Shown piece by piece: positions 1,681-42,945 of a stretch of DNA of 42,945 bases (positions are counted from its first letter, which is position 1; every line of letters starts with the position of its first letter). The DNA is from a virus. The notes under the pieces were generated by a model. That model was not told the origin of the DNA, ran no database searches, and saw nothing but the letters and a program-made list of their open reading frames with translations. The position numbers and the translations under genes are program-made. The stretch is taken from IMG/VR virus record IMGVR_UViG_3300028902_000027; one strand, 5' to 3'.

Positions 1681-3142
1681 GACCCAAGGCCTTTAGCATG
1701 ACGCCCGTATCAATCCCTGCATAGGAGAACGTTCCGGACTTCGTTACATAGTTGATCAATTGGGATGCCATGTCAACGTAATCGTCATTTTTTCCGCGAG
1801 GGAAGTTTAGGTGCTCAAGGATAAAGTCCTTGAGCCATGGCGCATCCATTGGAAAGTGAACGTTGCCCCTCTTCGTTTCCGAGCCATACGAAGGCCGGGA
1901 GGCTTTCGCGCGAGTAACCTTGCTGTCACTGCCAGGATTGATAGGGGTAATCCTTCCGATCTTGTCTTTGATCGTGGCAATGATGGCAGGGCCGTTAGCC
2001 TTATCCTCTATCAGTATTTCCGCCCCGGGGTATTCGCTTGCCCATCCGGAGATCCATTCCAGTGCTCCAACGAAGTCCAGTTTGCGCCGCTCTGCATGGA
2101 GAAGGTAGATATCCGTCCCGTCAATGCGCCATGCACCGCCGGCGCACCAATCGGAGGTGGACTCTCCCTTGAATGATAGGTCAAAGGATAGTGTCGTGAT
2201 ACCCTTTGAAGGTGGCTCCACGTATCGGGATTGGAAGCAATGGGTATCGAACACGATACCCGTAGCGGGGGCCGGCTTATTCTGCCACTGCGACGACCAG
2301 ACACCAATATCAGGGGTTCCGTCCTTGATCGTGGTACACACTTCCGGGGTGTATCGGTCAAGCCAGAAAGACTCATCCGGAGTAGTCCGTGGATCCTTTC
2401 CATAGGGTGTCTCGTACGGATCTCCGTCGAACAGAAGCGGGATACGTACGTGTAGGAAACCCTCGTCGGACTCGAGAAACTTGCCAGCGAGATCCGGTTC
2501 CGCTAGGCGCTGCATGATAAGGATTGTCTGCACTGTCGCAGGGTTCCTAGCGCGGCTTCGCATGGTGGATTGCCACCACTGCCAAGTCTTCTCCAAGTTC
2601 TCCGGAGTGGCTTCCAAGGGCTTCGTTGGGTCGTCAATGACTCGAATGTCAGGGTGACGACCCGTTGTCTTTCCGCCTACCGAGGTGGAGAATCGCCAGC
2701 CGCCGGCCGGGTTTCCGTTGGGTAGGTAGGTAGAGAACTCTCCTCCCGGTTCGTTGGAATCCAGCTTGACTTTGGATCCGAATAGGCCTCGATACCACGC
2801 CGAACCCATGAGGGTACGGACCTTTTCCGCGTCCCTATGGGTCAAGCTCGCGTCAAATGAAGTGTAAATGAAGGCCTTTGAAGGGTCGATAGACCAAAGC
2901 CATGCGTTGAAAAAGACGGATACTAGAAGACTCTTGGACGATCCCGGAGGTTGGTTCAAGATCAGGTTTCGGACGTTGCCTAGCTTTACTTGCTTCAAGT
3001 GCTCGCAAACGTGCTCGATATGCCAGTTATCCTGGAATACGATCGACGGCTCTACGTGCTCCCATGCGCGCCTGACGAAATAGTGCATGGAGCGAATGCA
3101 GCGCGCCCGCTCAACGTCTTTGAGGTTAGGTGCCCGGGCCAT
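1673..3142 (-). CDS. terL: Terminase large subunit
   Basis: Walker A-like LILNQPPGSSKS and Walker B-like IRVIDDP. C-terminal nuclease pattern ILIEDKANG ... FPRGKNDDYVDMASQ. 489 aa. Confidence 0.9.
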   Translation of the reverse strand: MARAPNLKDVERARCIRSMHYFVRRAWEHVEPSIVFQDNWHIEHVCEHLKQVKLGNVRNLILNQPPGSSKSLLVSVFFNAWLWSIDPSKAFIYTSFDASLTHRDAEKVRTLMGSAWYRGLFGSKVKLDSNEPGGEFSTYLPNGNPAGGWRFSTSVGGKTTGRHPDIRVIDDPTKPLEATPENLEKTWQWWQSTMRSRARNPATVQTILIMQRLAEPDLAGKFLESDEGFLHVRIPLLFDGDPYETPYGKDPRTTPDESFWLDRYTPEVCTTIKDGTPDIGVWSSQWQNKPAPATGIVFDTHCFQSRYVEPPSKGITTLSFDLSFKGESTSDWCAGGAWRIDGTDIYLLHAERRKLDFVGALEWISGWASEYPGAEILIEDKANGPAIIATIKDKIGRITPINPGSDSKVTRAKASRPSYGSETKRGNVHFPMDAPWLKDFILEHLNFPRGKNDDYVDMASQLINYVTKSGTFSYAGIDTGVMLKALGLR

Positions 3143-6697: not shown

Positions 6698-6838
6698 TTG
6701 CGATTGCCTTTCGCTTCGGTGTAGCGTCCCATGCGTTCCTTGTCACGATCGGAAAGCAGGCCTCCCGAAGTGTACGCCGCGATACGTTAGGACCGGGATT
6801 GCTAGAGCGATGCAAAGGATTGCTAGTGCGTCCATTCG

Positions 6839-6919
6839 TAGGAGTGAGGGGATTCGAACCCCTAAGCCTTTCGGCACGGTACCTAAAACCGCTGCGTATG
6901 CCAGTTCCGCCACACTCCC
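6839..6919 (-). tRNA. tRNA-Leu (anticodon UAG), type II with long variable arm
   Basis: Hand-folded cloverleaf. Acceptor GGGAGTG/CACTCCT (G1-U72). D arm GCG-N11-CGC. Anticodon stem GCGGT/ACCGT with loop TT-TAG-GT. Variable arm GCCGAAAGGC. T arm AGGGG-TTCGAAT-CCCCT. Discriminator A. No encoded CCA. Confidence 0.75.
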
Positions 6920-7070: not shown

Positions 7071-7796
7071 TCAGATAACAGGGCCGAACTTCAAGCGAGT
7101 GATTCGCTGGCCCTTCTTCGTAATGTGCAAGGTCGTGGCGACCCGGACAACCTGCCCATTCAGTGCGCCACCCTCGATCGCTTGCGTCAAGATCTGCTCG
7201 GATTGCGGGGCAATCTTTGCATTGATCTCGTCGGCGCTACCGATGCGGTACACGGCACCCAAGAAGGAAATCAGGTTGGGAAAAGCCACGTTGCGATCCT
7301 TGAGAGTCTGAACGTAGGATCGAGACGTACCCACGGGAACCTTCGGATTCCCCGATTCCACCACTTCCATTTCCACGATGACGGCGGGACCGTTCTGCTG
7401 TGTATTCTTTGCCAAGACCTTAGTGATCTTGCAAGTGTATTGCCCCTCTCCCTCTTGGTCCACATTGAAGTATGAACCCTGTTCGAACGTCTTGGATCCG
7501 CTCATCCCTTGGAACAGAGCGCCGGCCGGAGGCATGCCAGGGACGCCCATGGGAGCCGCTCCCGGAGGCGCACCGTACGCCGGGGGAGGTTGGTAGGCCT
7601 GTCCAGGGGGCGCGTAGCCGGGCATCGGGGTCGGCTGGTAGGCCGGTTGCGCGGGAGGTGGAGTCCAACCCGGAAGGGGCCCGGCGGGCGGCGGAGCGGC
7701 CGGGTAACCAGGGGGCGCGGCATGCCCGGGCACTTGCGGCGGGGCGAAGCCGTAGGGGTTACCAGGGACGGGCGGCGGGGGGAAGTTGTTGCTCAT
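7071..7796 (-). CDS. Protein with about 100-aa Pro-rich N-terminal region and C-terminal OB-like domain (possible DUF669-type ssDNA-binding protein)
   Basis: The N-terminus is low complexity (PPPVPGNPYGFAPPQVPG...). The C-terminal part GQYTCKITKVLAKNTQQNGPAVIVEMEVVE...FPNLISFLGAV resembles the DUF669 pattern as I recall it. It lies between the helicase and the polymerase. Confidence 0.35.
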   Translation of the reverse strand: MSNNFPPPPVPGNPYGFAPPQVPGHAAPPGYPAAPPPAGPLPGWTPPPAQPAYQPTPMPGYAPPGQAYQPPPAYGAPPGAAPMGVPGMPPAGALFQGMSGSKTFEQGSYFNVDQEGEGQYTCKITKVLAKNTQQNGPAVIVEMEVVESGNPKVPVGTSRSYVQTLKDRNVAFPNLISFLGAVYRIGSADEINAKIAPQSEQILTQAIEGGALNGQVVRVATTLHITKKGQRITRLKFGPVI

Positions 7797-7810: not shown

Positions 7811-9520
7811 TCACTCTTTCCGATTCGCAACCCACCTTGGAGTATTCCAAGGGTGGGAGTCCATATCCAGATCCGCAATCAATAGCTTCTGTGTGTGCCC
7901 TGTCATTTCCTGAATCATCCTTGCACTATCTAGGGCACCACGGAAACTTTCTTCATGTTCTAGGCATCCGATAAGAAAGTCACATGAAACGTTGTCTGCT
8001 GTCTGCCCGTCACGATGTGTCCGGCCAAGCAATTGTTCCCATGCTGGAGCGCCGGCCGGAACGGCGGTAAGTAGGTTCCGATTGAACGCTTGCAAGTTGC
8101 GTCCAGTGGAGTTTGCCTTAGTGGAGGCAATGATTACCTGAGAGGGATCGGCGCGCTCGATTGGCTCACCTTGATCTGTTACTCCCTCTCTACCGTAATA
8201 CTTCCATCCGGTCAAGCGGGCAAGTTCTCTGGCAAAGAAACTATGATCTGTCCAAATGATTCCGGGTCCGCCCCTTGCCCATTTCTGGCACACCTTCAAG
8301 GCGGAATCGTCATGCCATACGGGTTTAGAGTTAGGGGTGAAAGAGTCTCGGATCCTTGCCCATTGATTCCAGCTTGACGGATCCAATTGGCCGGCCGCGC
8401 AAGCATGGGCTATCTGTAGCTCCGTGTCAAGCGTCCGGGAGTGGGAAATCACAGCGCGCACGAATGCGGCCCATTGACGCCTTGCGTTGATCCATTCCTC
8501 CGGAGGTCTTGGATCCCAAATGTAATGCAGGCCTAGTGCCAACTCTCGAGAATGACGCCATACGTCAATGGCTTGCGTCAATGCCCAGCCATCCGGTGTC
8601 TCCCAAAGGTTCCTTAGGCGCTTGAAGTTGTCCTCCGTTGTTTGGTTGACATCGTATGCCATTCCGTGGAGGTACAGAGAACATGCTACGTGGTCGTCGC
8701 CGGAAGAGATGACACCGGGAGTGTCAAGCAAACGATCGCGGAACACTTGCCGCGCTTTGCTTAGATCGTCACCTTCATAGGCTTTCCCCGGGCGAGCTAG
8801 ACGAAGCAACGGGCCCGGTTCAATCTTATTGAAGGAACGATCGGAGGGCGAAAGACATTCACTCCACTCCATGCGCGTTCCCATGTCCAACGGGATGGGA
8901 GCGGTTGCCTTCAATGCCCATTCTAGAAGATGGCCGAAGTCCTCCAAAGAGTCTTTGATCAAGGTACCGGACATGGGAACGAACCGTGTTCCGGGAGCCG
9001 CTTCCATGTAGCGTTTCACTCGGCGGGTAACGCCAGCCTTGAGAGACTTCAATTTGTGTGCTTCGTCCGCGATAATGATATCCGGCTGGGCCGTCTCAAA
9101 GAAGCGAGCGGAACTCTCCCGGCCTAGCATTTCATAGGACACCATTTGGATATTCCTAGGGATCCTCCAATGTCCCATGAGGGTGTCCATCTCAAGTCTC
9201 GTTTTCTTGATCAAGCTCGCGGGCAACAGAAGCACTGGACGAACGGCATTCGTCACGAATGGGATCAAGAGACTTAGGAGAGTCTTTCCACCTCCGACGC
9301 GCACGGCAACGAAAGCGCCCCCAATGGTCGCCACCTCATGCAGCGCCGCACCTTGAACGGGACGGAGGTGCATACGACCATTGGGAAGCCTGCAAGTGGA
9401 GGTGTAGTAAGCAGCCGCACCTTGCATTTGCTCCGTTGTCCACTGCCGCCTAGGTAGCGCGTGAATGCGCGCCATGTCGGCGGACGGTGTCAAGTTGGTG
9501 CGTGTGTAAAGAGCTTGCAA
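7811..9520 (-). CDS. SNF2/DEAD-DEAH superfamily 2 helicase
   Basis: Motif I VRVGGGKTL, motif II IIADEAHKL, motif VI QLLGRTHRDGQ. Start is TTG 9520 or ATG 9475. Confidence 0.85.
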   Translation of the reverse strand: MQALYTRTNLTPSADMARIHALPRRQWTTEQMQGAAAYYTSTCRLPNGRMHLRPVQGAALHEVATIGGAFVAVRVGGGKTLLSLLIPFVTNAVRPVLLLPASLIKKTRLEMDTLMGHWRIPRNIQMVSYEMLGRESSARFFETAQPDIIIADEAHKLKSLKAGVTRRVKRYMEAAPGTRFVPMSGTLIKDSLEDFGHLLEWALKATAPIPLDMGTRMEWSECLSPSDRSFNKIEPGPLLRLARPGKAYEGDDLSKARQVFRDRLLDTPGVISSGDDHVACSLYLHGMAYDVNQTTEDNFKRLRNLWETPDGWALTQAIDVWRHSRELALGLHYIWDPRPPEEWINARRQWAAFVRAVISHSRTLDTELQIAHACAAGQLDPSSWNQWARIRDSFTPNSKPVWHDDSALKVCQKWARGGPGIIWTDHSFFARELARLTGWKYYGREGVTDQGEPIERADPSQVIIASTKANSTGRNLQAFNRNLLTAVPAGAPAWEQLLGRTHRDGQTADNVSCDFLIGCLEHEESFRGALDSARMIQEMTGHTQKLLIADLDMDSHPWNTPRWVANRKE

Positions 9521-12202: not shown

Positions 12203-12489
12203 TTGGACATGTCAAGGTTAGGGGTAGCGCCTTGATTGATCAAGTTGTTGACTAGTTGCTGCGCGCGCTTTCGGTTCTCTTGCGCCACGGAAAGCTCGCC
12301 CTTGATCGAGTGGAAAAGCTTGGCCGCTTCCTGATACTTTAGGAATGCCTCTTTTTCCGCCTTGATCGCATTGTCAAGGGCAATCGCCGCTTGCACCCGA
12401 GGGGACGCAGTAGGGTCGGCCTCCGATGCCAGCCGATCGGCGAGAGTGGACGACGGCGCCTCGGTTGTGCTAGCCTGCGATTTAGCCAT
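12199..12489 (-). CDS. Hypothetical coiled-coil protein (candidate leaderless mRNA)
   Basis: The ATG at 12489 (MAKSQAST...) sits 7 nt downstream of a TATTCT -10 box. The upstream TTG at 12525 is part of the TTGACT -35 hexamer. Confidence 0.55.
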   Translation of the reverse strand: MAKSQASTTEAPSSTLADRLASEADPTASPRVQAAIALDNAIKAEKEAFLKYQEAAKLFHSIKGELSVAQENRKRAQQLVNNLINQGATPNLDMSK

Positions 12490-12496
12490 GGGACGG

Positions 12497-12525
12497 AGAA
12501 TAGCGGACCCTCCTATGGCAGTCAA
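12497..12525 (-). promoter_or_regulatory. Sigma70-type promoter TTGACT-N17-TATTCT, 7 nt from the ATG
   Basis: Minus strand reads ggggTTGACTgccataggagggtccgcTATTCTccgtcccATG. -35 at 12525-12520, -10 at 12502-12497. Confidence 0.6.
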
Positions 12526-12549
12526 CCCCTATCGTGCGCAAGGCAAATA

Positions 12550-14790
12550 ATGTCCGACCCTAGGACACCGGCCCAACTGGGTGGAGTCAACGTGGATACG
12601 ATCCCCCTTTGGCCCTTGCTCGCCGGAGGTGCGTGTGCATGTGGCAATTGCGAGAGTCCGGGGAAGCATCCCGCGGCACATATGTACCCCCAACCCGGTG
12701 CGGGTTACGGGATCCATTGCGGTGAGCGCAACAATGTATTTGTCATTGATTGCGACGTGAAACCGGACGCCAACGGTCTAGAGGAATTCGGCCGCCTATG
12801 TCGTGAGAGAGGTGGACATGAGTTGCCTAACACCCTTGTAGTGCGTACGGGATCGGGAGGCTTCCACTTCTTTTTTCGCTGGCCGGGAAAACGGATCAAG
12901 AATTCGCGTTCTAAGCTTGCAAAGGCGGTTGACGTAAAGGGCGACGGTGGGTGGGTTGTCGGTCCGGGTTCGCCGCACGCCAATGGAGGGACGTATGCAG
13001 TCGTCAATGATGCGCCGGTCTTGGAAGCGCCCCCTTGGTTGCTCGCATGGCAGGGCCTTTACCATGGAGAGCAACCGGACGGAGGTGGCCCTACCCCGCC
13101 TGTTCACATCCCTTGGGTTGATCCTGAATCCGACGAAGGCAAGCGGCGTATCAATGCATATGTTCTCGAATGCAAGGGACTAGAGGGTGAGTTCCCTTCG
13201 TCGGTCGCGGGCAATAGGGGGCATGATCGGCTATTCGCCATTGCAAGGCGTGGCACTGCATACTGGCAGATACCGATCGATCTATGCGCATTGATTGTAT
13301 GGGAACATTTCAACCCACGCTGCGAACCTCCCTGGCAGTGGCACGACATCCATCGGAAGGTGAATGAAGCGGTTAGAACCTTAGTGGAGCCGTCGATCGG
13401 TCCGCCTCCCATGCATTGGGGTGCGCAACTTTCAGCGATGGCAGCACTAGGTGGCGAGCTTCCTGCTGAACCAGTGGACCGCCCACGGGACAAGGATCCA
13501 ACGCACGTATACACGTTGGATGCGTCGCGCTCTGTAGTAGCAGGGAAACCGACCAAGTGCGCGTTTAGTGACATCGTCTTCCGTCTCGTGAATCACCCCT
13601 CATGGTCAGGGGTTCTCTACTTCGACGAATTTGCTCACTGTATCCGAGCCGTCAATCCTCCAATGCGCCTAGATGCGGAGACATCGGAGGAAGGCCTTTC
13701 GGACAATGACATCTCTCGTTTCAGTGTATGGTTCGAAGCGGTGCAAGGTTTCGCCGTGGCGCGGGAGCGGCTCATTGAAGCCGTCCAGTTGGCGGCACAA
13801 TCGATCAAGGTGCACCCGGTAAGAGAGTACCTTTACGCGCTTCCGAAGACTCCTACAACCATTCTGGACGACTTGGCGGGCAAGCTTTGGGGAGGATCCA
13901 AACTGGAATCCGATCTAGTTCGCAAGTTCCTTGTCGGTGCCGTGCGGCGCATCCTAAGGCCTGGCACGCAAATGGACACCATGCTTGTCCTTCAAGGACA
14001 CCAGGGGGCTAAGAAGACGCAGTTCGTGCGCACACTGTTCGGTTGGGATTGGTCGTCGCAAAGCCTTTCGGACATTACAACGAAAGATGCATCGCAGGGA
14101 TTGCAAGGCGTATGGGGTCAAGAGATTGGCGAATTGGATAAGTTCCTGAGAGTGGATCCGATGACTGCAAAGGACTTCGTCTCAAGGACGGATGAAAGGT
14201 ACCGGCCGCCATTCGGCCGCGCATTTATTCGAGTTCCGAGGCAAGTTGTATTTGTCGGAACCACTAACCTAAAGTCCATGCTCCGTGACCCCACAGGCGA
14301 ACGAAGGTATTGGATCTGCCGCATCCCTGATAACGTGGTTCTAGACCTCGAATGGGTGAAGGCTCATAGGGATGAGATTTGGTCCGCCGCATTGCAGCTT
14401 GCCATTGCCGGTACGCCGCATTGGATCGACGAAGGTACGGCAATGGCCATGGAGCTACGTACCTCGCAAGAGCAGCACGCGGAAAGGGATCCTTGGGAGG
14501 AAATTCTACGGGACTACCTCCGTGGAAAGACTTGGGTAGCTACCCGAGATCTGTACCGTTGGGCCATCTCCCATGGAGAGACTGGGTGGGAAGGCCGATT
14601 CGGTGTCAGGGAACAGAACCGAATCAATACCGCATGCCAGCGCATTGGTTGCGACCCTGAGATTGTCGGCGGCTCCAAGGGGTGGAAGGTACCGGAGCCA
14701 TTGGCCTCCGAAGCGCCCTCCAAGCCCTCCGTAGAGACTCCCAAGCTTGCGCTGCTATCTCTGGTCACCGAAAAGAAGAAACCCGCCTAG
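12550..14790 (+). CDS. Bifunctional primase-polymerase (Prim-Pol N-terminal domain) fused to VirE/D5-type P-loop helicase
   Basis: CACGNCESPGKHP, VIDCDVK and GSGGFHFFF fit the prim-pol pattern. Walker A LVLQGHQGAKKTQF sits in the C-terminal half. I prefer the ATG at 12550; the ORF is open from 12391 but would overlap the divergent gene. Confidence 0.8.
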   Translation: MSDPRTPAQLGGVNVDTIPLWPLLAGGACACGNCESPGKHPAAHMYPQPGAGYGIHCGERNNVFVIDCDVKPDANGLEEFGRLCRERGGHELPNTLVVRTGSGGFHFFFRWPGKRIKNSRSKLAKAVDVKGDGGWVVGPGSPHANGGTYAVVNDAPVLEAPPWLLAWQGLYHGEQPDGGGPTPPVHIPWVDPESDEGKRRINAYVLECKGLEGEFPSSVAGNRGHDRLFAIARRGTAYWQIPIDLCALIVWEHFNPRCEPPWQWHDIHRKVNEAVRTLVEPSIGPPPMHWGAQLSAMAALGGELPAEPVDRPRDKDPTHVYTLDASRSVVAGKPTKCAFSDIVFRLVNHPSWSGVLYFDEFAHCIRAVNPPMRLDAETSEEGLSDNDISRFSVWFEAVQGFAVARERLIEAVQLAAQSIKVHPVREYLYALPKTPTTILDDLAGKLWGGSKLESDLVRKFLVGAVRRILRPGTQMDTMLVLQGHQGAKKTQFVRTLFGWDWSSQSLSDITTKDASQGLQGVWGQEIGELDKFLRVDPMTAKDFVSRTDERYRPPFGRAFIRVPRQVVFVGTTNLKSMLRDPTGERRYWICRIPDNVVLDLEWVKAHRDEIWSAALQLAIAGTPHWIDEGTAMAMELRTSQEQHAERDPWEEILRDYLRGKTWVATRDLYRWAISHGETGWEGRFGVREQNRINTACQRIGCDPEIVGGSKGWKVPEPLASEAPSKPSVETPKLALLSLVTEKKKPA

Positions 14791-16455: not shown

Positions 16456-16968
16456 TCACACTCCCTGTAGCAACTTGCGAGCCGCTGAGATACCTTCCGC
16501 CCATTGGAGGGATCCCGGTACCGTGGAAACCAATTGACGGGCCACGATTCTCCAGGATAGCACCTCCGTTGTCAGGGACACCACTGCGCCGCTCGGGAGA
16601 CTCTCCAACGGGCGGCTCTTGCGGCTCTGATACGTGACCCACGCCAGGGTCCGGATCTGCTCCACGGACACGTCAGGGAGGGTTCTGGTGTCATCGGGCT
16701 TGCGGTTGTCGCGGGGGGCCCGGCCGCCGGAATAGTGGACAGGCACGTCAACGATCTTGGTCGTAGGATCGATGCCCTCCCGGATGGTCTTGGGAGCAAT
16801 CTCCCGGCCGCATCCTGGACAACGGAACCGGAGCTTGCCATCCTTCGCGAACGCGAGGGTGGGTTTTCCTTCCTGTTCTGTGATGGTCTCCAAGTCCTTG
16901 TCAGAGTGGTAGCAGACCAATCCGGTAAGACGAGAGGTGGGACATTCGCCGGGTCGTCGCGCTCGCAT
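16456..16968 (-). CDS. Hypothetical protein with putative zinc ribbon; first gene of the leftward early operon
   Basis: ATG preceded by GGAGG 7 nt upstream. Cys pairs ECPTSRLTGLVC ... CPGC. Confidence 0.55.
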   Translation of the reverse strand: MRARRPGECPTSRLTGLVCYHSDKDLETITEQEGKPTLAFAKDGKLRFRCPGCGREIAPKTIREGIDPTTKIVDVPVHYSGGRAPRDNRKPDDTRTLPDVSVEQIRTLAWVTYQSRKSRPLESLPSGAVVSLTTEVLSWRIVARQLVSTVPGSLQWAEGISAARKLLQGV

Positions 16969-16995
16969 AGGGGGCCTCCGTGGAGCAGACCAGGC

Positions 16996-17026
16996 CTAAG
17001 TGGCCGGATCCATTGGGTTGTGTAAC
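16996..17026 (+). promoter_or_regulatory. Operator-like repeat copy 1 (CTAA-N6-GGATCCATTGG core)
   Basis: ctaagtggccggatccattgggttgtgtaac; 26 of 31 nt identical to 17097-17127. It lies in the leader between the leftward promoter and the first gene. Confidence 0.5.
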
Positions 17027-17038
17027 GAACCGAGGGAG

Positions 17039-17067
17039 AGTATAACCCCCTCATTTGGTAGTGTCAA
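17039..17067 (-). promoter_or_regulatory. Leftward early promoter, TTGACA-N17-TATACT
   Basis: Minus strand reads agcTTGACActaccaaatgagggggtTATACTctccc. -35 at 17067-17062, -10 at 17044-17039. About 70 nt upstream of the ATG at 16968. Confidence 0.7.
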
Positions 17068-17096
17068 GCTGGCATATGTCCGAACGGCGATTGGCT

Positions 17097-17127
17097 CTAA
17101 GTGCTCGGATCCATTGGCTTCTGTCAC
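17097..17127 (+). promoter_or_regulatory. Operator-like repeat copy 2
   Basis: ctaagtgctcggatccattggcttctgtcac, 101 bp from copy 1 and 30 bp upstream of the -35 box of the leftward promoter. Confidence 0.5.
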
Positions 17128-17393
17128 ATTTCTAAAGATCAAGTTATAGGTAAGTCGAGGGGAGTTAGGTAAAAATGAGGGGACTAAACGTGTAAATAAT
17201 GCCATATATACCCCCGTATACCCCGCCGCCACACCCCCCGCGCGTGGGCTCTAAGTTGGACGGTGTGTGCAGTTTGGCGAGGGTGTCAAACCCCAATGGT
17301 TTCGCATTTTTAGGGGCATGAATTCGCGGGGCAACCCCCCCAAAGGGTCGTGTGAAATTCGAGGTTCCATTTATGCCGAATTCGAGGCAAAGT

Positions 17394-17414
17394 CCAATGG
17401 ATCCGAATGGTTAG
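17394..17414 (-). promoter_or_regulatory. Operator-like repeat copy 3 (inverted orientation)
   Basis: The reverse complement reads ctaaccattcGGATCCATTGG, the same CTAA-N6-GGATCCATTGG architecture. Confidence 0.4.
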
Positions 17415-17624
17415 ACGTGTTCGCCGTGCGCGCTTAGGCCTTATGTGCAGAAAAGCGCAGCGGTACTGTAAAAAGCACAGTGCGGACATAATTACGTCCG
17501 TGATTTACCTCCGAATATACCACTTCGGCTATGCGAAGGATTTGCGTCTGAATATGTCAGAGTGGCAAATGAATATGCCAGGATGACAAATGCCCGGAAA
17601 TGAGGTTGTGAACGCCGCAATACG

Positions 17625-17744
17625 GACACGAATGTCATAGGCTTTTTCCGAGCAATTCGATCAAGCTCGAAAACCGCGACATTCATGTCATAAGGAAATC
17701 GGCCTAATATTGAAGGTGACCAGAAACCAGGACATCTATGTCAT
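17625..17744 (+). repeat. Three phased GACA-N3-ATGTCAT sites (starts 17625, 17678, 17731; 53-bp spacing)
   Basis: GACAcgaATGTCAT, GACAttcATGTCAT and GACAtctATGTCAT. Each contains the inverted repeat GACA-N4-TGTC. Confidence 0.6.
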
Positions 17745-18041
17745 GGTCAAGGGTTGGAGGGATAATGGAGCTTTGCAGGGAATCGAGCGGGTTGCTTGTT
17801 TTCAAGGGTTGGCATGGGGCCTGCAATATGGGAAGGTATGAGCAACACCATGGCAAACGAAAAGGCCGGAGCACCAAATAACCTCTTGACAGGCAATTCA
17901 GAACCATTAGGATGGTATCATGGCCAAACATTCCGATTACCACTAAGGTGCGTGCAAAGGTTATCGGCCTTCGTCGGACTCTGTCCGAAATCCTCCGGGA
18001 GTGGCTTGCAAGCAAGGGATCGAAAGGCTAAGGTAACCCCC

Positions 18042-18161
18042 ATGGACCCTGTCATTATCGCAATCAACCTCGCAAATCCCCCTGTGGCAATGGGCCTTTG
18101 GCTCGTTACCGTGCTCGCCACTTACCTCGTAACCTCTCGTCTCGTTCGGAGGGGTAAATAG
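18042..18161 (+). CDS. Possible small membrane peptide (39 aa)
   Basis: ATG preceded by aaggctaagg. Sequence MDPVIIAINLANPPVAMGLWLVTVLATYLVTSRLVRRGK: one hydrophobic helix plus a basic tail. The frame is open upstream to TTG 17796, so the extent is uncertain. Confidence 0.3.
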   Translation: MDPVIIAINLANPPVAMGLWLVTVLATYLVTSRLVRRGK

Positions 18162-18164
18162 ATC

Positions 18165-18193
18165 TTGACCCTTTCGAGTCCCTAGGCTACTAA
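18165..18193 (+). promoter_or_regulatory. Rightward promoter, TTGACC-N17-TACTAA
   Basis: gatcTTGACCctttcgagtccctaggcTACTAAtacg, 49 nt upstream of the ATG at 18242. Confidence 0.6.
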
Positions 18194-18241
18194 TACGAAA
18201 CCAAGCGCAATCCAGCGCACCCCAAAGAAAAGAGAACTCCA

Positions 18242-18898
18242 ATGACCGACACCAACACCGCCACCACTCCCGCCACGGAAACCGCCAAGACCAAGACTCC
18301 GAAGGTGACCCCTCCGGAGGTCACTTTGGGTGCGACCAAGTTCGGCGAGCTTCTCTCGTCGCACTGGGATGCCGTCGTCATCTCGGGTCCGGAGGGAGTG
18401 GATCGCGATCGTACGGAGCGCGCGTTCTCGCTTGCCCTCACTGCCTATCTCAAGGGCAAGGGCTTGATTACCCGTGGCGGCCGTGAGAAGTCCTACGATG
18501 AAACCAACGTTCTCAACGCGATCATGGTCGCGTTCCTGACGCAAGCCAAGACCCCCACGGATCAACTCCAACTTGCGACCGTCACCTATGCCGCGATCGA
18601 AGTGCTCAAGGTTGGCTTCGCTGACATGGATAAGGCCCGCCGCGCCGTCCAGTCGACGCTTATCTCGGATGCGTCTCCGTTCTATGCCAAGCGCGCGGGA
18701 GAGTCCAAGTTCTCCGGAACCGTCGTGGGTCTCAAGGATCCGGCCAAGCTCCCGACCAAGCCCTCCGTCCTCTCTTGGGAGCACAAGGACGATGCGCCGG
18801 CCCCCGTTGCCGCCGCACTTGTGCCGACCCCTGTCGCCGCCGCGCCCAAGGCGGAAGAGAAGAAGCCCACCAACGGAGGCAAGCCCGCGAAGAAGTGA
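18242..18898 (+). CDS. Hypothetical protein with Thr/Lys-rich N-terminus and Pro/Ala/Lys-rich C-terminal tail
   Basis: First gene after the rightward sigma70-type promoter. Its ends are low complexity (TDTNTATTPATETAKTKTPK ... PKAEEKKPTNGGKPAKK). The long antisense ORF over it is Arg/Gly-rich and judged spurious. Confidence 0.7.
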   Translation: MTDTNTATTPATETAKTKTPKVTPPEVTLGATKFGELLSSHWDAVVISGPEGVDRDRTERAFSLALTAYLKGKGLITRGGREKSYDETNVLNAIMVAFLTQAKTPTDQLQLATVTYAAIEVLKVGFADMDKARRAVQSTLISDASPFYAKRAGESKFSGTVVGLKDPAKLPTKPSVLSWEHKDDAPAPVAAALVPTPVAAAPKAEEKKPTNGGKPAKK

Positions 18899-18984
18899 GA
18901 GACTTTGCCCGGGACGAGCACAGTGGAGGGTGCAACTCCCTCCCTCGGGCCTAAGGATCCTAACCCCTAATCGAAGGACACACA

Positions 18985-19236
18985 ATGCCAGTCCGGCCAA
19001 TGAAGGAAAACGACAAGCCAACCCACTGCTATGCATGCTGGCATTTGCCGTACGCATGCAAATGCAAGGGGCGAGACGAGCACGAAGCCTGCAAGGAATG
19101 CAAGGAAGCACAGAAAGAAGGTTACGCCGTCTGTCGTGCGCACGAGAAGAAGGGTATTGAGACACAGAAGCACTATGATCGAAGCGAGCGTTTGCGCGCG
19201 AAAGATCACAGACGCTACATGTCGAGAACCCTGTAA
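18985..19236 (+). CDS. Small Cys-rich (zinc-finger-like) basic protein
   Basis: CxxC (C15,C18), CxC (C25,C27), CxxC (C36,C39) and CxxH (C50,H53), followed by a basic tail. GAAGGA lies 7 nt upstream of the ATG. Confidence 0.6.
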   Translation: MPVRPMKENDKPTHCYACWHLPYACKCKGRDEHEACKECKEAQKEGYAVCRAHEKKGIETQKHYDRSERLRAKDHRRYMSRTL

Positions 19237-19359: not shown

Positions 19360-19430
19360 AGAGGTGTCGTCCAACGGCAGGACCGGGGATTTTGGTTCCC
19401 TGTATCTAGGTTCGAATCCTAGCACCTCTG
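19360..19430 (+). tRNA. tRNA-Gln (anticodon UUG)
   Basis: Hand-folded. Acceptor AGAGGTG/CACCTCT. D arm GTCC-AACGGCA-GGAC. Anticodon arm GGGGA-TT-TTG-GT-TCCCT. T arm CTAGG-TTCGAAT-CCTAG. Discriminator G. Confidence 0.8.
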
Positions 19431-19439
19431 CAAAGTCAC

Positions 19440-41345: not shown

Positions 41346-42945
41346 ATGGGACTATTCGACGCGCTAGCGCTAGCTTTCTCTGGACAGATTGCACCGAATG
41401 TGTCCCCCATGCGTTCCGATGGCTGGACGAATACGCTAACGGGTCAAGGGACTGTAGAGCGAGATAAGTCCCAATCTGCCTATTACTTTCGCGATCGAAT
41501 ACTGAACGGTCCGGAGCTTTCGGATCTCTATTACGGTGACTTTCTCGCAAAGATCGTGGTAGACGAACTAGTTGATCAAGCCTTCCGACGAGGTGTCTGT
41601 ATCGAGACAGAAGCTGGTGAGGGAGGAGAAGACTTCCTCAAATGGGCGGAAGAGAAATACTCCGCTATGGCGCAAGTCAAGCACGCTTGCAAGATGGGCC
41701 GGCTATTCGGCGGAGCACTCATCCTAGTGGGCGCCAATGACGGCCAAGACTTGGATCAACCTCTGAACGTTGACCGTATCAAGTCTATCGATTGGATTTT
41801 GGTTGTTGACCGAAGGCAAGCCCAACCTTGCAAGTGGTATACGATCCTAGGACCCAAGCTTGGCCGGCCGGAGCAATACCAAATCTCTCTCATGGGCTCT
41901 GCTTTCTTCGGAGGCAGTCCGAAGGATCTCAAGGGGAAGCAAGTCAACTTCACCAAGATGCATGAGACGCGCACGATCCGCTTCGATGGCGAGCAAGTCG
42001 ACCGCGTCAAGTCTCTAGAGCTTTTCAACGGTTGGAGCCTGTCGGTACTGCAACGCTGCTACCCTATCCTTCAATCATTTGGTGCCGCAATGGGTGGCAT
42101 CGATAACATGCTAGTGGACGGATCGCAAGGCGTGTTCAAGATCAAGGACTTGATCAAGATGCTTGCCGGTTCGCAGGCAGATAAGATCATGGACCGTTTG
42201 CGCATTATGGACATGTCTAGATCCATCGTGCGCGGCATCGTTCTCGACTCCGACGGGGAGTCTTTCGAGAACGTGGAGAGAACCTTTACGGGTCTAGCGG
42301 ACGTAATCGATCGCAAGATTCTCCAACTGTCTGCCGCAACTAGGATTCCTGTGTCCGTTCTCATGGGCCGCTCCGCCGCCGGCATGAATGCCACTGGAGA
42401 GCTAGATCTAACCAATTGGTATGACCAAGTTGAGACGTACCAAGAGGATCCGCTAGAACATTTGATCGATTCTTTTCTCCGTTTGCTAGCACGGGATAAG
42501 GATTCTCCCCTATCACCTGAATTGGTTGACGTGGAGTTCCCTCCGCTAAAGACCATGACGGCCAAAGAGGAAGCGGAGATCTATACACAGGTGACGGGCG
42601 CCGATGCGGTCAATATCGACAAGGGTGTTCTAGACCCGGCCGCGGTTGCCATTGCTCGATTTGGTCAAGGGAAGTGGAGTCCGCGCGCACCCGAGGTGGA
42701 TGTCGAGGCATTGCAGAGGGAGCTTGCCACAAGGGAGACCTTTGACGTTCCCACGCCTCCCGGAGCCCCCACGGACCCGGCAACGGACCCGGAAGCCCCC
42801 ACGGACCCTGCAACGGACCCGGAAGCCCCCACGGACCCGGCAACGGACCCGGAAGCCCCCACGGACCCGGCAACGGACCCGGAAGCCCCCACGGACCCGG
42901 CAACGGACCCGGAAGCCCCCACGGACCCGGCAACGGACCCGGAAG
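41346..42945 (+). CDS. Portal protein (DUF1073-type), runs off the window end and continues at 1..234
   Basis: The frame is open from the ATG at 41346 to the end of the window. Core pattern ...ILVGANDGQD...MGRSAAGMNATGELDLTNWY.... This ORF is not in the supplied ORF track because it has no stop in the window. Confidence 0.85.
   Translation, partial: MGLFDALALAFSGQIAPNVSPMRSDGWTNTLTGQGTVERDKSQSAYYFRDRILNGPELSDLYYGDFLAKIVVDELVDQAFRRGVCIETEAGEGGEDFLKWAEEKYSAMAQVKHACKMGRLFGGALILVGANDGQDLDQPLNVDRIKSIDWILVVDRRQAQPCKWYTILGPKLGRPEQYQISLMGSAFFGGSPKDLKGKQVNFTKMHETRTIRFDGEQVDRVKSLELFNGWSLSVLQRCYPILQSFGAAMGGIDNMLVDGSQGVFKIKDLIKMLAGSQADKIMDRLRIMDMSRSIVRGIVLDSDGESFENVERTFTGLADVIDRKILQLSAATRIPVSVLMGRSAAGMNATGELDLTNWYDQVETYQEDPLEHLIDSFLRLLARDKDSPLSPELVDVEFPPLKTMTAKEEAEIYTQVTGADAVNIDKGVLDPAAVAIARFGQGKWSPRAPEVDVEALQRELATRETFDVPTPPGAPTDPATDPEAPTDPATDPEAPTDPATDPEAPTDPATDPEAPTDPATDPEAPTDPATDPE
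42759..42945 (+). repeat. In-frame 30-nt tandem repeat (six units plus 7 nt) encoding PGAPTDPATD, then PEAPTDPATD
   Basis: Units start at 42759, 42789, 42819, 42849, 42879 and 42909. There is a single synonymous variant (cct, T at 42809). The last 97 nt equal nt 1-97. Confidence 0.9.

Follow-up and report, generated by a model that had tools for sequence, protein, structure and literature searches.

The DNA analysed here, referred to as the window, is the virus record IMGVR_UViG_3300028902_000027 of IMG/VR in its full length of 42,945 nucleotides. Between positions 17625 and 17744 it carries an array of three short palindromes at a regular spacing, which is followed by a promoter-like sequence of the sigma-54 type (−24/−12 element). 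The three palindromes are real and conserved, and we consider it quite likely that they form an enhancer, i.e. a group of upstream activating sequences (UAS), for this promoter at the head of the virion genes. A broader proposal is advanced only tentatively: diverse uncultivated phages may wire blocks of genes (here the virion genes) to the sigma-54 of their hosts by means of an undescribed cassette, and some of them may carry a free-standing HTH_8 domain. In the same tentative sense, the cassette would consist of phased TATGACA-N4-TGTCATA sites, a sigma-54 promoter, and a gene starting at the transcription start.

A phased array upstream of a sigma-54-type promoter

On the + strand of the window, 14-bp sequences of the type GACA-N3-ATGTCAT start at positions 17625, 17678, and 17731, with start-to-start distances of 53 and 53 bp. 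They are designated site 1 (17625–17638, GACACGAATGTCAT / GACAcgaaTGTCAT), site 2 (17678–17691, GACATTCATGTCAT / GACAttcaTGTCAT), and site 3 (17731–17744, GACATCTATGTCAT / GACAtctaTGTCAT). The initial annotation of this DNA had reported three sites with exactly this spacing and an inverted repeat, and a scan of the window gave the same result. The palindromic core GACA-N4-TGTC is present in exactly three copies in the window, every one of them within the array, and with up to one mismatch allowed the 14-mer is matched six times against 0.58 expected, a number that was reached in none of 100 shuffles. The 39-bp spacers between the sites show no similarity to each other, and the array is therefore not a decayed tandem duplication. 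Neighbouring sites are 5.0 helical turns apart, i.e. they lie on one face of the helix, a phasing which had also been pointed out in the initial annotation and which is borne out here for sites that are symmetric and conserved as well. The GC content across 17600–17760 is 0.47.

The sequence TGGCATGGGGCCTGCA, located at positions 17810–17825 of the + strand, is an exact match to TGGCAY-N5-YTGCW. It begins 68 bp past the TGTC of site 3 and is oriented toward the rightward virion genes. The GG (17811–17812, −24) and GC (17823–17824, −12) dinucleotides show the invariant separation of ten bases, and the 16-mer is close to TGGCAC-N5-TTGCW. When C17824 is taken as −12, transcription is predicted to start at about position 17836, and the three dyad-symmetric sites are centred at about −206 (site 1), −153 (site 2), and −100 (site 3), which is the position and phasing of UAS. 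In both strands of the window (86 kb) there are two exact matches, the second being TGGCACTAGGCCTGCA at 8526–8541 (− strand), which is part of the helicase gene, has no palindromes in its vicinity, and may be a chance match or an intragenic sigma-54 site.

Conservation in the phage lineage

The neighbouring gene for a 218-aa protein has one cluster of homologues in the protein database (77% identity), which is located on the 27-kb contig L007; two more contigs encode a protein identical to the L007 homologue, and their array is identical, too. The comparison within the close lineage is thus one of the window with L007, the sole close relative found. In L007 the sites begin at positions 1263, 1316, and 1369, so that both the motif and the spacing of 53 and 53 bp, whose presence in relatives had been proposed as a check, are retained, and the cores agree with those of the window at 35 of 36 positions. 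The single core change affects the N4 spacer of site 1, the flank of which also shows a T>C change. Site 2 is identical at 12 of 12 core positions, with a left flank in L007 (ATGACA) that completes a 16-bp palindrome, and site 3 likewise at 12 of 12 although the 10 bp just upstream differ. The −24/−12 element of L007 (TGGCACGGGTCTAGCA) is again located 68 bp past site 3, and the four differences between the two 16-mers spare the GG and the GC.

The conserved stretch is sharply bounded. Identity to L007 is 84% over the 301 bp from 17536 to 17836, vs 42% for 17131–17535 and 29% for the following 49 bp (17837–17885), and conservation accordingly ceases at the predicted start, right after the promoter. 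The conserved regulatory block (17536–17836, + strand) comprises two 19-bp palindromes described below, the three UAS, the spacer, and the −24/−12 promoter.

More distant syntenic relatives were identified by their capsid protein (50–52% identity). One of them, L246 (50%), has a cassette-like element, in which TGGCACGTGGATAGCA stands at the head of the same cluster and one degenerate site, TATGACCGGAGTGTCAT, lies 67 bp upstream of it; L243 and L247 have none. Three further relatives of this kind (P0006, P0007, and P0016) are on contigs too short to reach the regulatory region. Sites and promoter are thus conserved together in both L007 and L246, i.e. within the same lineage.

Occurrence of the cassette in other contigs

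Viral contigs were scanned for two copies of the motif given in the initial annotation, no promoter being requested, and six loci were obtained. They carry the fuller palindrome TATGACA-N4-TGTCATA, and at four of them (L001, L002, L005, and L006) a −24/−12 element with at least 9 of the 12 consensus positions is found 44–61 bp past the last site and faces away from the array; the background frequency of these elements amounts to 0.06 per 300 nt. The sequence of L003 does not extend beyond the array, and L004 was rejected as a 54-bp tandem duplication without a −24/−12 element that is probably unrelated. A looser scan added cassettes in L137 (two, on the same 94.6-kb contig as L002), L140, L216, and L225, as well as in L181, L182 and L184 (one 619-kb contig). 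Among bacterial genomes, 1 of 120 loci with paired ATGACA-N4-TGTCAT sequences carries the cassette, namely a contig of a Polyangiaceae metagenome-assembled genome (L083), where it is present twice.

When metagenomes were scanned for one site plus promoter, at least 120 loci with at least 131 modules were retrieved. In total, TATGACA-N4-TGTCATA followed 43–76 bp later by a −24/−12 element was found in more than 50 unrelated viral or metagenomic contigs. The properties of the modules described in the following, that is, the number of sites, spacing, phasing, the G at position 7, and the position of the ATG, were not selected for by the scan pattern. Two to four sites within 300 nt are present in 63–65 modules, about half of the metagenome modules listed. 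Among the listed modules, the spacing of the sites peaks at 44, 55, 69, and 96–98 bp and the distance separating promoter and proximal site at 56–57, 63–68, and 77–78 bp (79 bp in the window), which amounts to a family-wide phasing of about 11 bp across cassettes. Position 7 of the 16-mer is a G, as in TGGCACG, in 41 of the 65 listed multi-site modules, and 31 of these 65 have an ATG 11–13 nt past the 16-mer with a GG before it. Such a position of the ATG matches transcripts that start at or just before the start codon and lends independent support to the predicted start. The closest architectural twin among the listed matches is L344, a phage-like contig of 4.2 kb, in which three sites are spaced 55 and 55 bp apart, the proximal one begins 77 bp before TGGCATAGTCCCTGCA, and offset 12 is occupied by an ATG.

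According to a Pfam scan, the longest metagenome loci contain a mix of phage genes and ordinary bacterial genes. An all-against-all BLAST comparison of the cassette loci revealed no protein common to them beyond small HTH (helix-turn-helix) families, and the myxophage Mx8, which had been considered as a known carrier, has no sites.

Several contigs show additional features. In L314 (1–5753), L316, L274, L269, L272, L307, L137, and L002, two to four cassettes are found within a few kb, each heading a short block of genes; such multiple cassettes may act like a repeated punctuation mark of transcription units. In L005, two copies of a parS-like 16-bp palindrome (GTGTTTCACGTGAAACA, 2938–2955 and 3056–3073) are located directly upstream of five enhancer sites, which hints at a phage maintained like a plasmid. 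In L225 (about 1000–1380), DnaA-box-like TGTGGATAA repeats stand on both sides of the cassette, where an origin may lie beside the sigma-54 promoter.

Proteins that may bind the sites

At least 15 of the cassette loci have a gene for a protein of 60–110 aa on the same strand, which ends at the first site or less than about 100 bp from it. These proteins share the motif GGN..AAR.LG(V/I)S.RT and are matched by the Pfam family HTH_8 with up to 38 bits; examples are encoded in L344 (165–422), L259 (1779–1973), L266 (4818–5099), L330 (487–822), and L083 (about 7100–7569), and there are others. They look like sigma-54 activators reduced to the DNA-binding domain, the ATPase being absent. Among solved structures, the protein of L344 is matched best by the DNA-binding domains of ZraR, NtrX, NtrC4, and NifA, all of them sigma-54 activators; a homologue search with the same protein gave no match. 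The HTH_8 and structure matches indicate that the sites are of the kind read by DNA-binding domains of the type present in bacterial enhancer-binding proteins (bEBPs).

A complete activator gene was encountered in one case. The low-GC metagenome contig L293 contains a frameshifted full-length bEBP gene (1260–2700, − strand) with a PAS domain, the GAFTGA motif, and a C-terminal HTH, followed by TGTCATTAATGACA, TGACAAATTTGTCA, TTGGCACAATTATTGCAT, and a DUF1446/AtuA-like gene, the last being identified by eye from the translation. L293 would thus be a cellular example in which a site of this type is located next to its activator.

In the window itself, no HTH_8-like protein was detected, neither by a hidden Markov model (HMM) search of all open reading frames (ORFs) of at least 30 aa nor by hhalign of three small early proteins, and L007 has no HTH_8-like protein next to its sites. 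A ribbon-helix-helix-like ORF of 39 aa (17912–18031) was dismissed as a candidate binder because it is not conserved in L007. Since the window encodes neither a sigma-54 activator (see below) nor an HTH_8 protein, we infer that the array is most likely bound by an enhancer-binding protein of the host. The free-standing HTH_8 proteins found elsewhere may serve as competitors, mimics, or adaptors.

Proposed mechanism and alternative explanations

The sites with their spacing and conservation, the −24/−12 element, and the recurrence of the cassette are observations. The mechanism that we propose resembles the textbook one, and here binding, looping, dependence on sigma-54, and the start site are inferred, as are the late role and the provision of the activator by the host. 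Dimers of an activator of the Fis/NtrC type (HTH_8), supplied by the host, would bind the three sites on one helical face, five turns apart, and assemble into an active AAA+ oligomer. By looping of the DNA, this oligomer would contact the sigma-54 holoenzyme in the closed complex at the −24/−12 element and would use ATP to open the complex. Transcription would then begin at about 17836 and run rightward into the 22-kb virion-morphogenesis cluster, so that the element would function as a switchable late-type promoter in tandem with a conserved sigma-70-like promoter. If this is true, a free-standing HTH_8 domain could compete with, mimic, or redirect the host activator, and its use by viruses would be a new form of viral control over enhancer-dependent transcription.

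Several observations weigh against an enhancer function. Within the conserved block, the spacers are 80–90% and the sites 92–100% identical to L007, and as only two sequences are compared and the spacers are nearly as conserved, the sites cannot be separated from them statistically. The first ORF after the promoter (107 aa, 17838–18161, + strand) begins with an ATG 12 nt past the 16-mer, i.e. at about +3, which is not kept in L007; conservation is limited to the last 39 codons (18042–18161), which encode a small membrane peptide and correspond to a gene call in L007 (1881–1997). As its ATG at 17838 is present in the window and absent in L007, the 107-aa ORF is doubtful. Furthermore, the same genes could be transcribed mainly from a sigma-70-like promoter further downstream, which is well conserved, and the syntenic phages L243 and L247 have other repeats instead of the cassette. 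A sigma-54 activator encoded by the phage was rejected because PF00158, the ATPase domain of these activators, gave no match in the 123 ORFs of the window of at least 90 aa, and no GAFTGA-type ATPase or Walker motifs were found in the cassette loci from the viral, metagenome, and relative searches except in L293. Loose pairs of TGACA-N4-TGTCA in viral and bacterial genomes are mostly not linked to a −24/−12 element (11 of 113 clusters vs about 7 expected in the looser scan). Finally, stretches of ordinary bacterial chromosomes are among the longest metagenome loci, so that some of the single-site matches are due to chance, for which reason the multi-site subset was relied on.

The alternative that survives best, although we regard it as improbable, assumes that a phage-encoded protein which is not an AAA+ activator, perhaps a small and so far unrecognised DNA-binding protein comparable to the HTH_8 proteins of other cassette phages, binds the sites and either represses or anti-activates the promoter in competition with a host activator or recruits a host ATPase, the array being a set of operators for temporal control. 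The cassette loci with an HTH_8 protein encoded directly upstream on the same strand would fit this view, as would the several small early ORFs that adjoin the control region of the window. A DNA-binding domain alone cannot remodel the sigma-54 holoenzyme and must consequently modulate something else. The HMM and profile comparisons revealed no such protein in the window, however, and the retention of these sites in two phages that lack an HTH_8 gene, the window and L007, points to a binder from the host. Moreover, this alternative itself still requires a sigma-54 promoter.

The initial annotation had offered iterons at a replication origin as one reading of the array. In that case, the sites would be bound by the PrimPol-VapE/D5-type primase-helicase, encoded 2.8 kb away (12391–14790, + strand), or by another initiator. 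Phased repeats in the largest non-coding region at such a distance from a primase-helicase gene are suggestive, the P4 alpha primase-helicase, a relative of the family to which the window's gene belongs, recognises origin repeats, and the cassette of L225 is surrounded by DnaA-box-like repeats. This reading has nevertheless fared poorly, and we consider it very unlikely. The palindrome recurs in many contigs that have no replication protein in common with the window, hence without co-occurrence with one initiator, and both its distance and its helical phase relative to a −24/−12 element and a gene start are constrained. No AT-rich unwinding stretch adjoins the array, the only one being located 450 bp to the left among the CGGATCCATTGG repeats, and L243 and L247 have the same primase-helicase (PrimPol-VapE) as the window but lack the sites.

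Equally remote is the idea that the sites are classical repressor operators on overlapping sigma-70 promoters in the manner of lambda OR/OL: despite their dyad symmetry and multiple copies, and although site 3 forms the −35 region of a sigma-70-like sequence (ATGTCA-17-GATAAT, 9/12), sites 1 and 2 overlap with no promoter-like sequence, L007 has lost the −10 region of the sequence that overlaps site 3 (GATAAT to GGCAAG) while site 3 is untouched, a spacing of 53 bp is unlike that of adjacent operators, and Pfam and PHROG scans revealed no integrase, repressor, or HTH protein in the window, i.e. neither an adjacent repressor gene nor a lysogeny module. The cooperative array for a dimeric DNA-binding protein which the initial annotation had also envisaged thus agrees well with the data in its architecture, whereas a repressor-operator function is not the best fit.

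Other elements of the control region

Just 5' of site 1 there are two 19-bp imperfect palindromes of the type TGYCA-N3-TGRCA, ATATGTCAGAGTGGCAAAT (17552–17570) and ATATGCCAGGATGACAAAT (17573–17591), which are 21 bp apart, have no further copies in the window, and are conserved in L007. They are probably sites for a second regulator protein. The half-sites ATGTCAG (17554) and ATGACA (17583), which had been noted in the initial annotation as resembling the array, are indeed present but are part of this separate pair.

The sigma-70-like promoter mentioned above, TTGACA-16-TAGGAT (17886–17913, + strand, 10/12), is located in tandem 75 bp downstream of the predicted sigma-54 start, and 27 of its 28 positions are identical in L007 (1544–1581). 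In L007, the ATG of an 85-aa gene follows the −10 region after 6 nt (leaderless geometry), and at this position the window has only an 8-codon ORF, so that an indel of the 85-aa gene separates the two phages.

The repeat CGGATCCATTGG is found in three exact copies and one degenerate copy, two of which are direct (17005–17016 and 17106–17117, + strand) and two inverted (17293–17304 and 17394–17405, − strand), the members of each pair being 101 bp apart. The repeats flank the most AT-rich stretch (17109–17210, GC 0.30–0.33) and a leftward sigma-70-like promoter (17067..17039). This stretch contains the 40-mers of lowest GC content, and nowhere else is the intergenic region strongly AT-rich; together with the repeats it lies 450–600 bp to the left of the array. 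The repeats and the AT-rich stretch are better candidates for iterons and an origin than the GACA sites, and an origin is predicted at about 17000–17400. The relatives L246 and L247 have many GTTACA/TGTAAC repeats at the position of the CGGATCCATTGG repeats.

Genome context

The window represents a tailed phage of about 43 kb that was assembled as a closed circle, with an overlap of 97 nt between its ends that lies within a 30-nt tandem repeat. This repeat, CCGGAAGCCCCCACGGACCCGGCAACGGAC (1–190 and 42750–42945), encodes a proline-rich or collagen-like repeat of a protein spanning the junction, which is probably where the assembly was broken and circularised. The DNA from 16900 to 18300 had no match in GenBank phages, and a search of viral contigs for related loci with the DUF2213 protein found none.

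The leftward genes include those for terminase, a family-A DNA polymerase, a helicase, and a PD-(D/E)XK nuclease. Small genes in a short leftward run extend as far as 16968. Beyond them, about 1 kb is non-coding, more than anywhere else in the genome, and this region holds the array. To judge from this arrangement, the array region is a divergent control region between the early or replication genes and the virion genes. The rightward cluster is unbroken from about 18042 to 40315 (+ strand) and encodes two small proteins, the 218-aa protein, tRNA-Gln, and head, tail, and baseplate proteins. From 18242 onward, it comprises the genes for the 218-aa protein, an 83-aa protein, and the tRNA (19360–19431), and then the head genes for a DUF2213/Pa193 gp24-like protein (19453), a cement protein (20558), and the major capsid protein (21048), with the tail and baseplate genes after these. 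No terminator-like site was found on the + strand between 17836 and 21200, and the 22-kb virion-morphogenesis cluster is presumed to be served by the promoter at 17810–17825.

The tRNA-Gln gene (anticodon TTG, + strand) separates the small early-late genes from the head genes, within the presumed sigma-54/sigma-70 transcription unit; a gene for tRNA-Leu(TAG) is located on the − strand at 6838–6919. The longest ORF of the stretch 18182–19165 (− strand, 327 aa) has a high content of R, G, and L; it almost certainly does not represent a gene and was set aside as an antisense artefact of the conserved 218-aa gene on the + strand. The cumulative GC skew tracks the direction of transcription and was of no help in locating an origin.

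Comparison with known systems

What looks like a textbook layout of enhancer plus promoter heads the virion genes of a phage, and the cassette is present in dozens of unrelated environmental phage contigs. If the interpretation of the array as a sigma-54 enhancer is confirmed, activator-gated transcription by sigma-54 would be a regular strategy of phages in some groups of hosts and would link phage development to the signal sensed by the host activator. The new UAS consensus could help to find this activator and the hosts, and the free-standing HTH_8 proteins would be candidate viral modulators of enhancer-binding proteins. For the purposes of annotation, phased palindromes in intergenic phage DNA merit a check for a −24/−12 element before they are called iterons. 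In the literature searched (an incomplete library), no description was found of the TATGACA-N4-TGTCATA consensus or the cassette, nor of sigma-54 in myxophages or of RpoN-dependent phage promoters, with the exception of phage YuA.

For this Pseudomonas phage, development was reported to depend strictly on the sigma-54 of the host (PMC5053324, which cites Ceyssens 2008; PMC10914365), and YuA, being a tailed phage, thus provides a precedent for the use of sigma-54 by phages. PMC5053324 calls such use rare and names YuA as its example. The GenBank record of YuA has three annotated −24/−12 promoter fragments in the region of the structural genes. These fragments are weak matches to the −24/−12 element (at most 8/12), the YuA genome does not contain GACA-N4-TGTC, and there is no similarity to the window at the protein or DNA level. 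The accessible portions of the YuA literature contain no description of its activator sites, if it has any.

Phage systems with a comparable layout differ in other respects. As in the window, the O-binding repeats of lambda and the ori/crr region of P4, to which the P4 alpha protein binds, are phased sites in an intergenic region, which in P4 is located near a primase-helicase gene. Unlike these iterons, the sites of the window are not associated with one initiator family, have no AT-rich neighbour, and are tied to a promoter element. Other phages with the cassette place a small regulator gene just upstream, at the start of a new transcription unit, as is the case for lambda Q and PR' and for C/Mor of Mu. 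The lambda Q and Mu C/Mor systems act on the sigma-70 holoenzyme, whereas the cassette has a −24/−12 promoter, and the window itself is devoid of a small regulator gene.

The closest parallels are the UAS systems of sigma-54, such as NtrC at glnAp2, NifA, ZraR, and the EBP regulons of Clostridiales (PMC6615313), with which the window shares the GG/GC spacing and dyad-symmetric sites about 100–200 bp upstream on one face of the helix. As in sigma-54 regulons, genes for regulator domains are often located next to the targets. Target operons of bEBPs are usually preceded by several UAS about 100–250 bp upstream of the −24/−12 element (PMC6615313), and the proximal sites of the other cassettes, at about −75 to −100, are closer than the 100–250 bp of Clostridiales. 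TATGACA-N4-TGTCATA corresponds to none of the UAS consensus sequences considered here. In contrast to NtrC, NifA, and ZraR, the cassette is located in phage genomes, the phage has no AAA+ activator of its own, and many of the cassettes have an ATG at the transcription start, i.e. a leaderless geometry.

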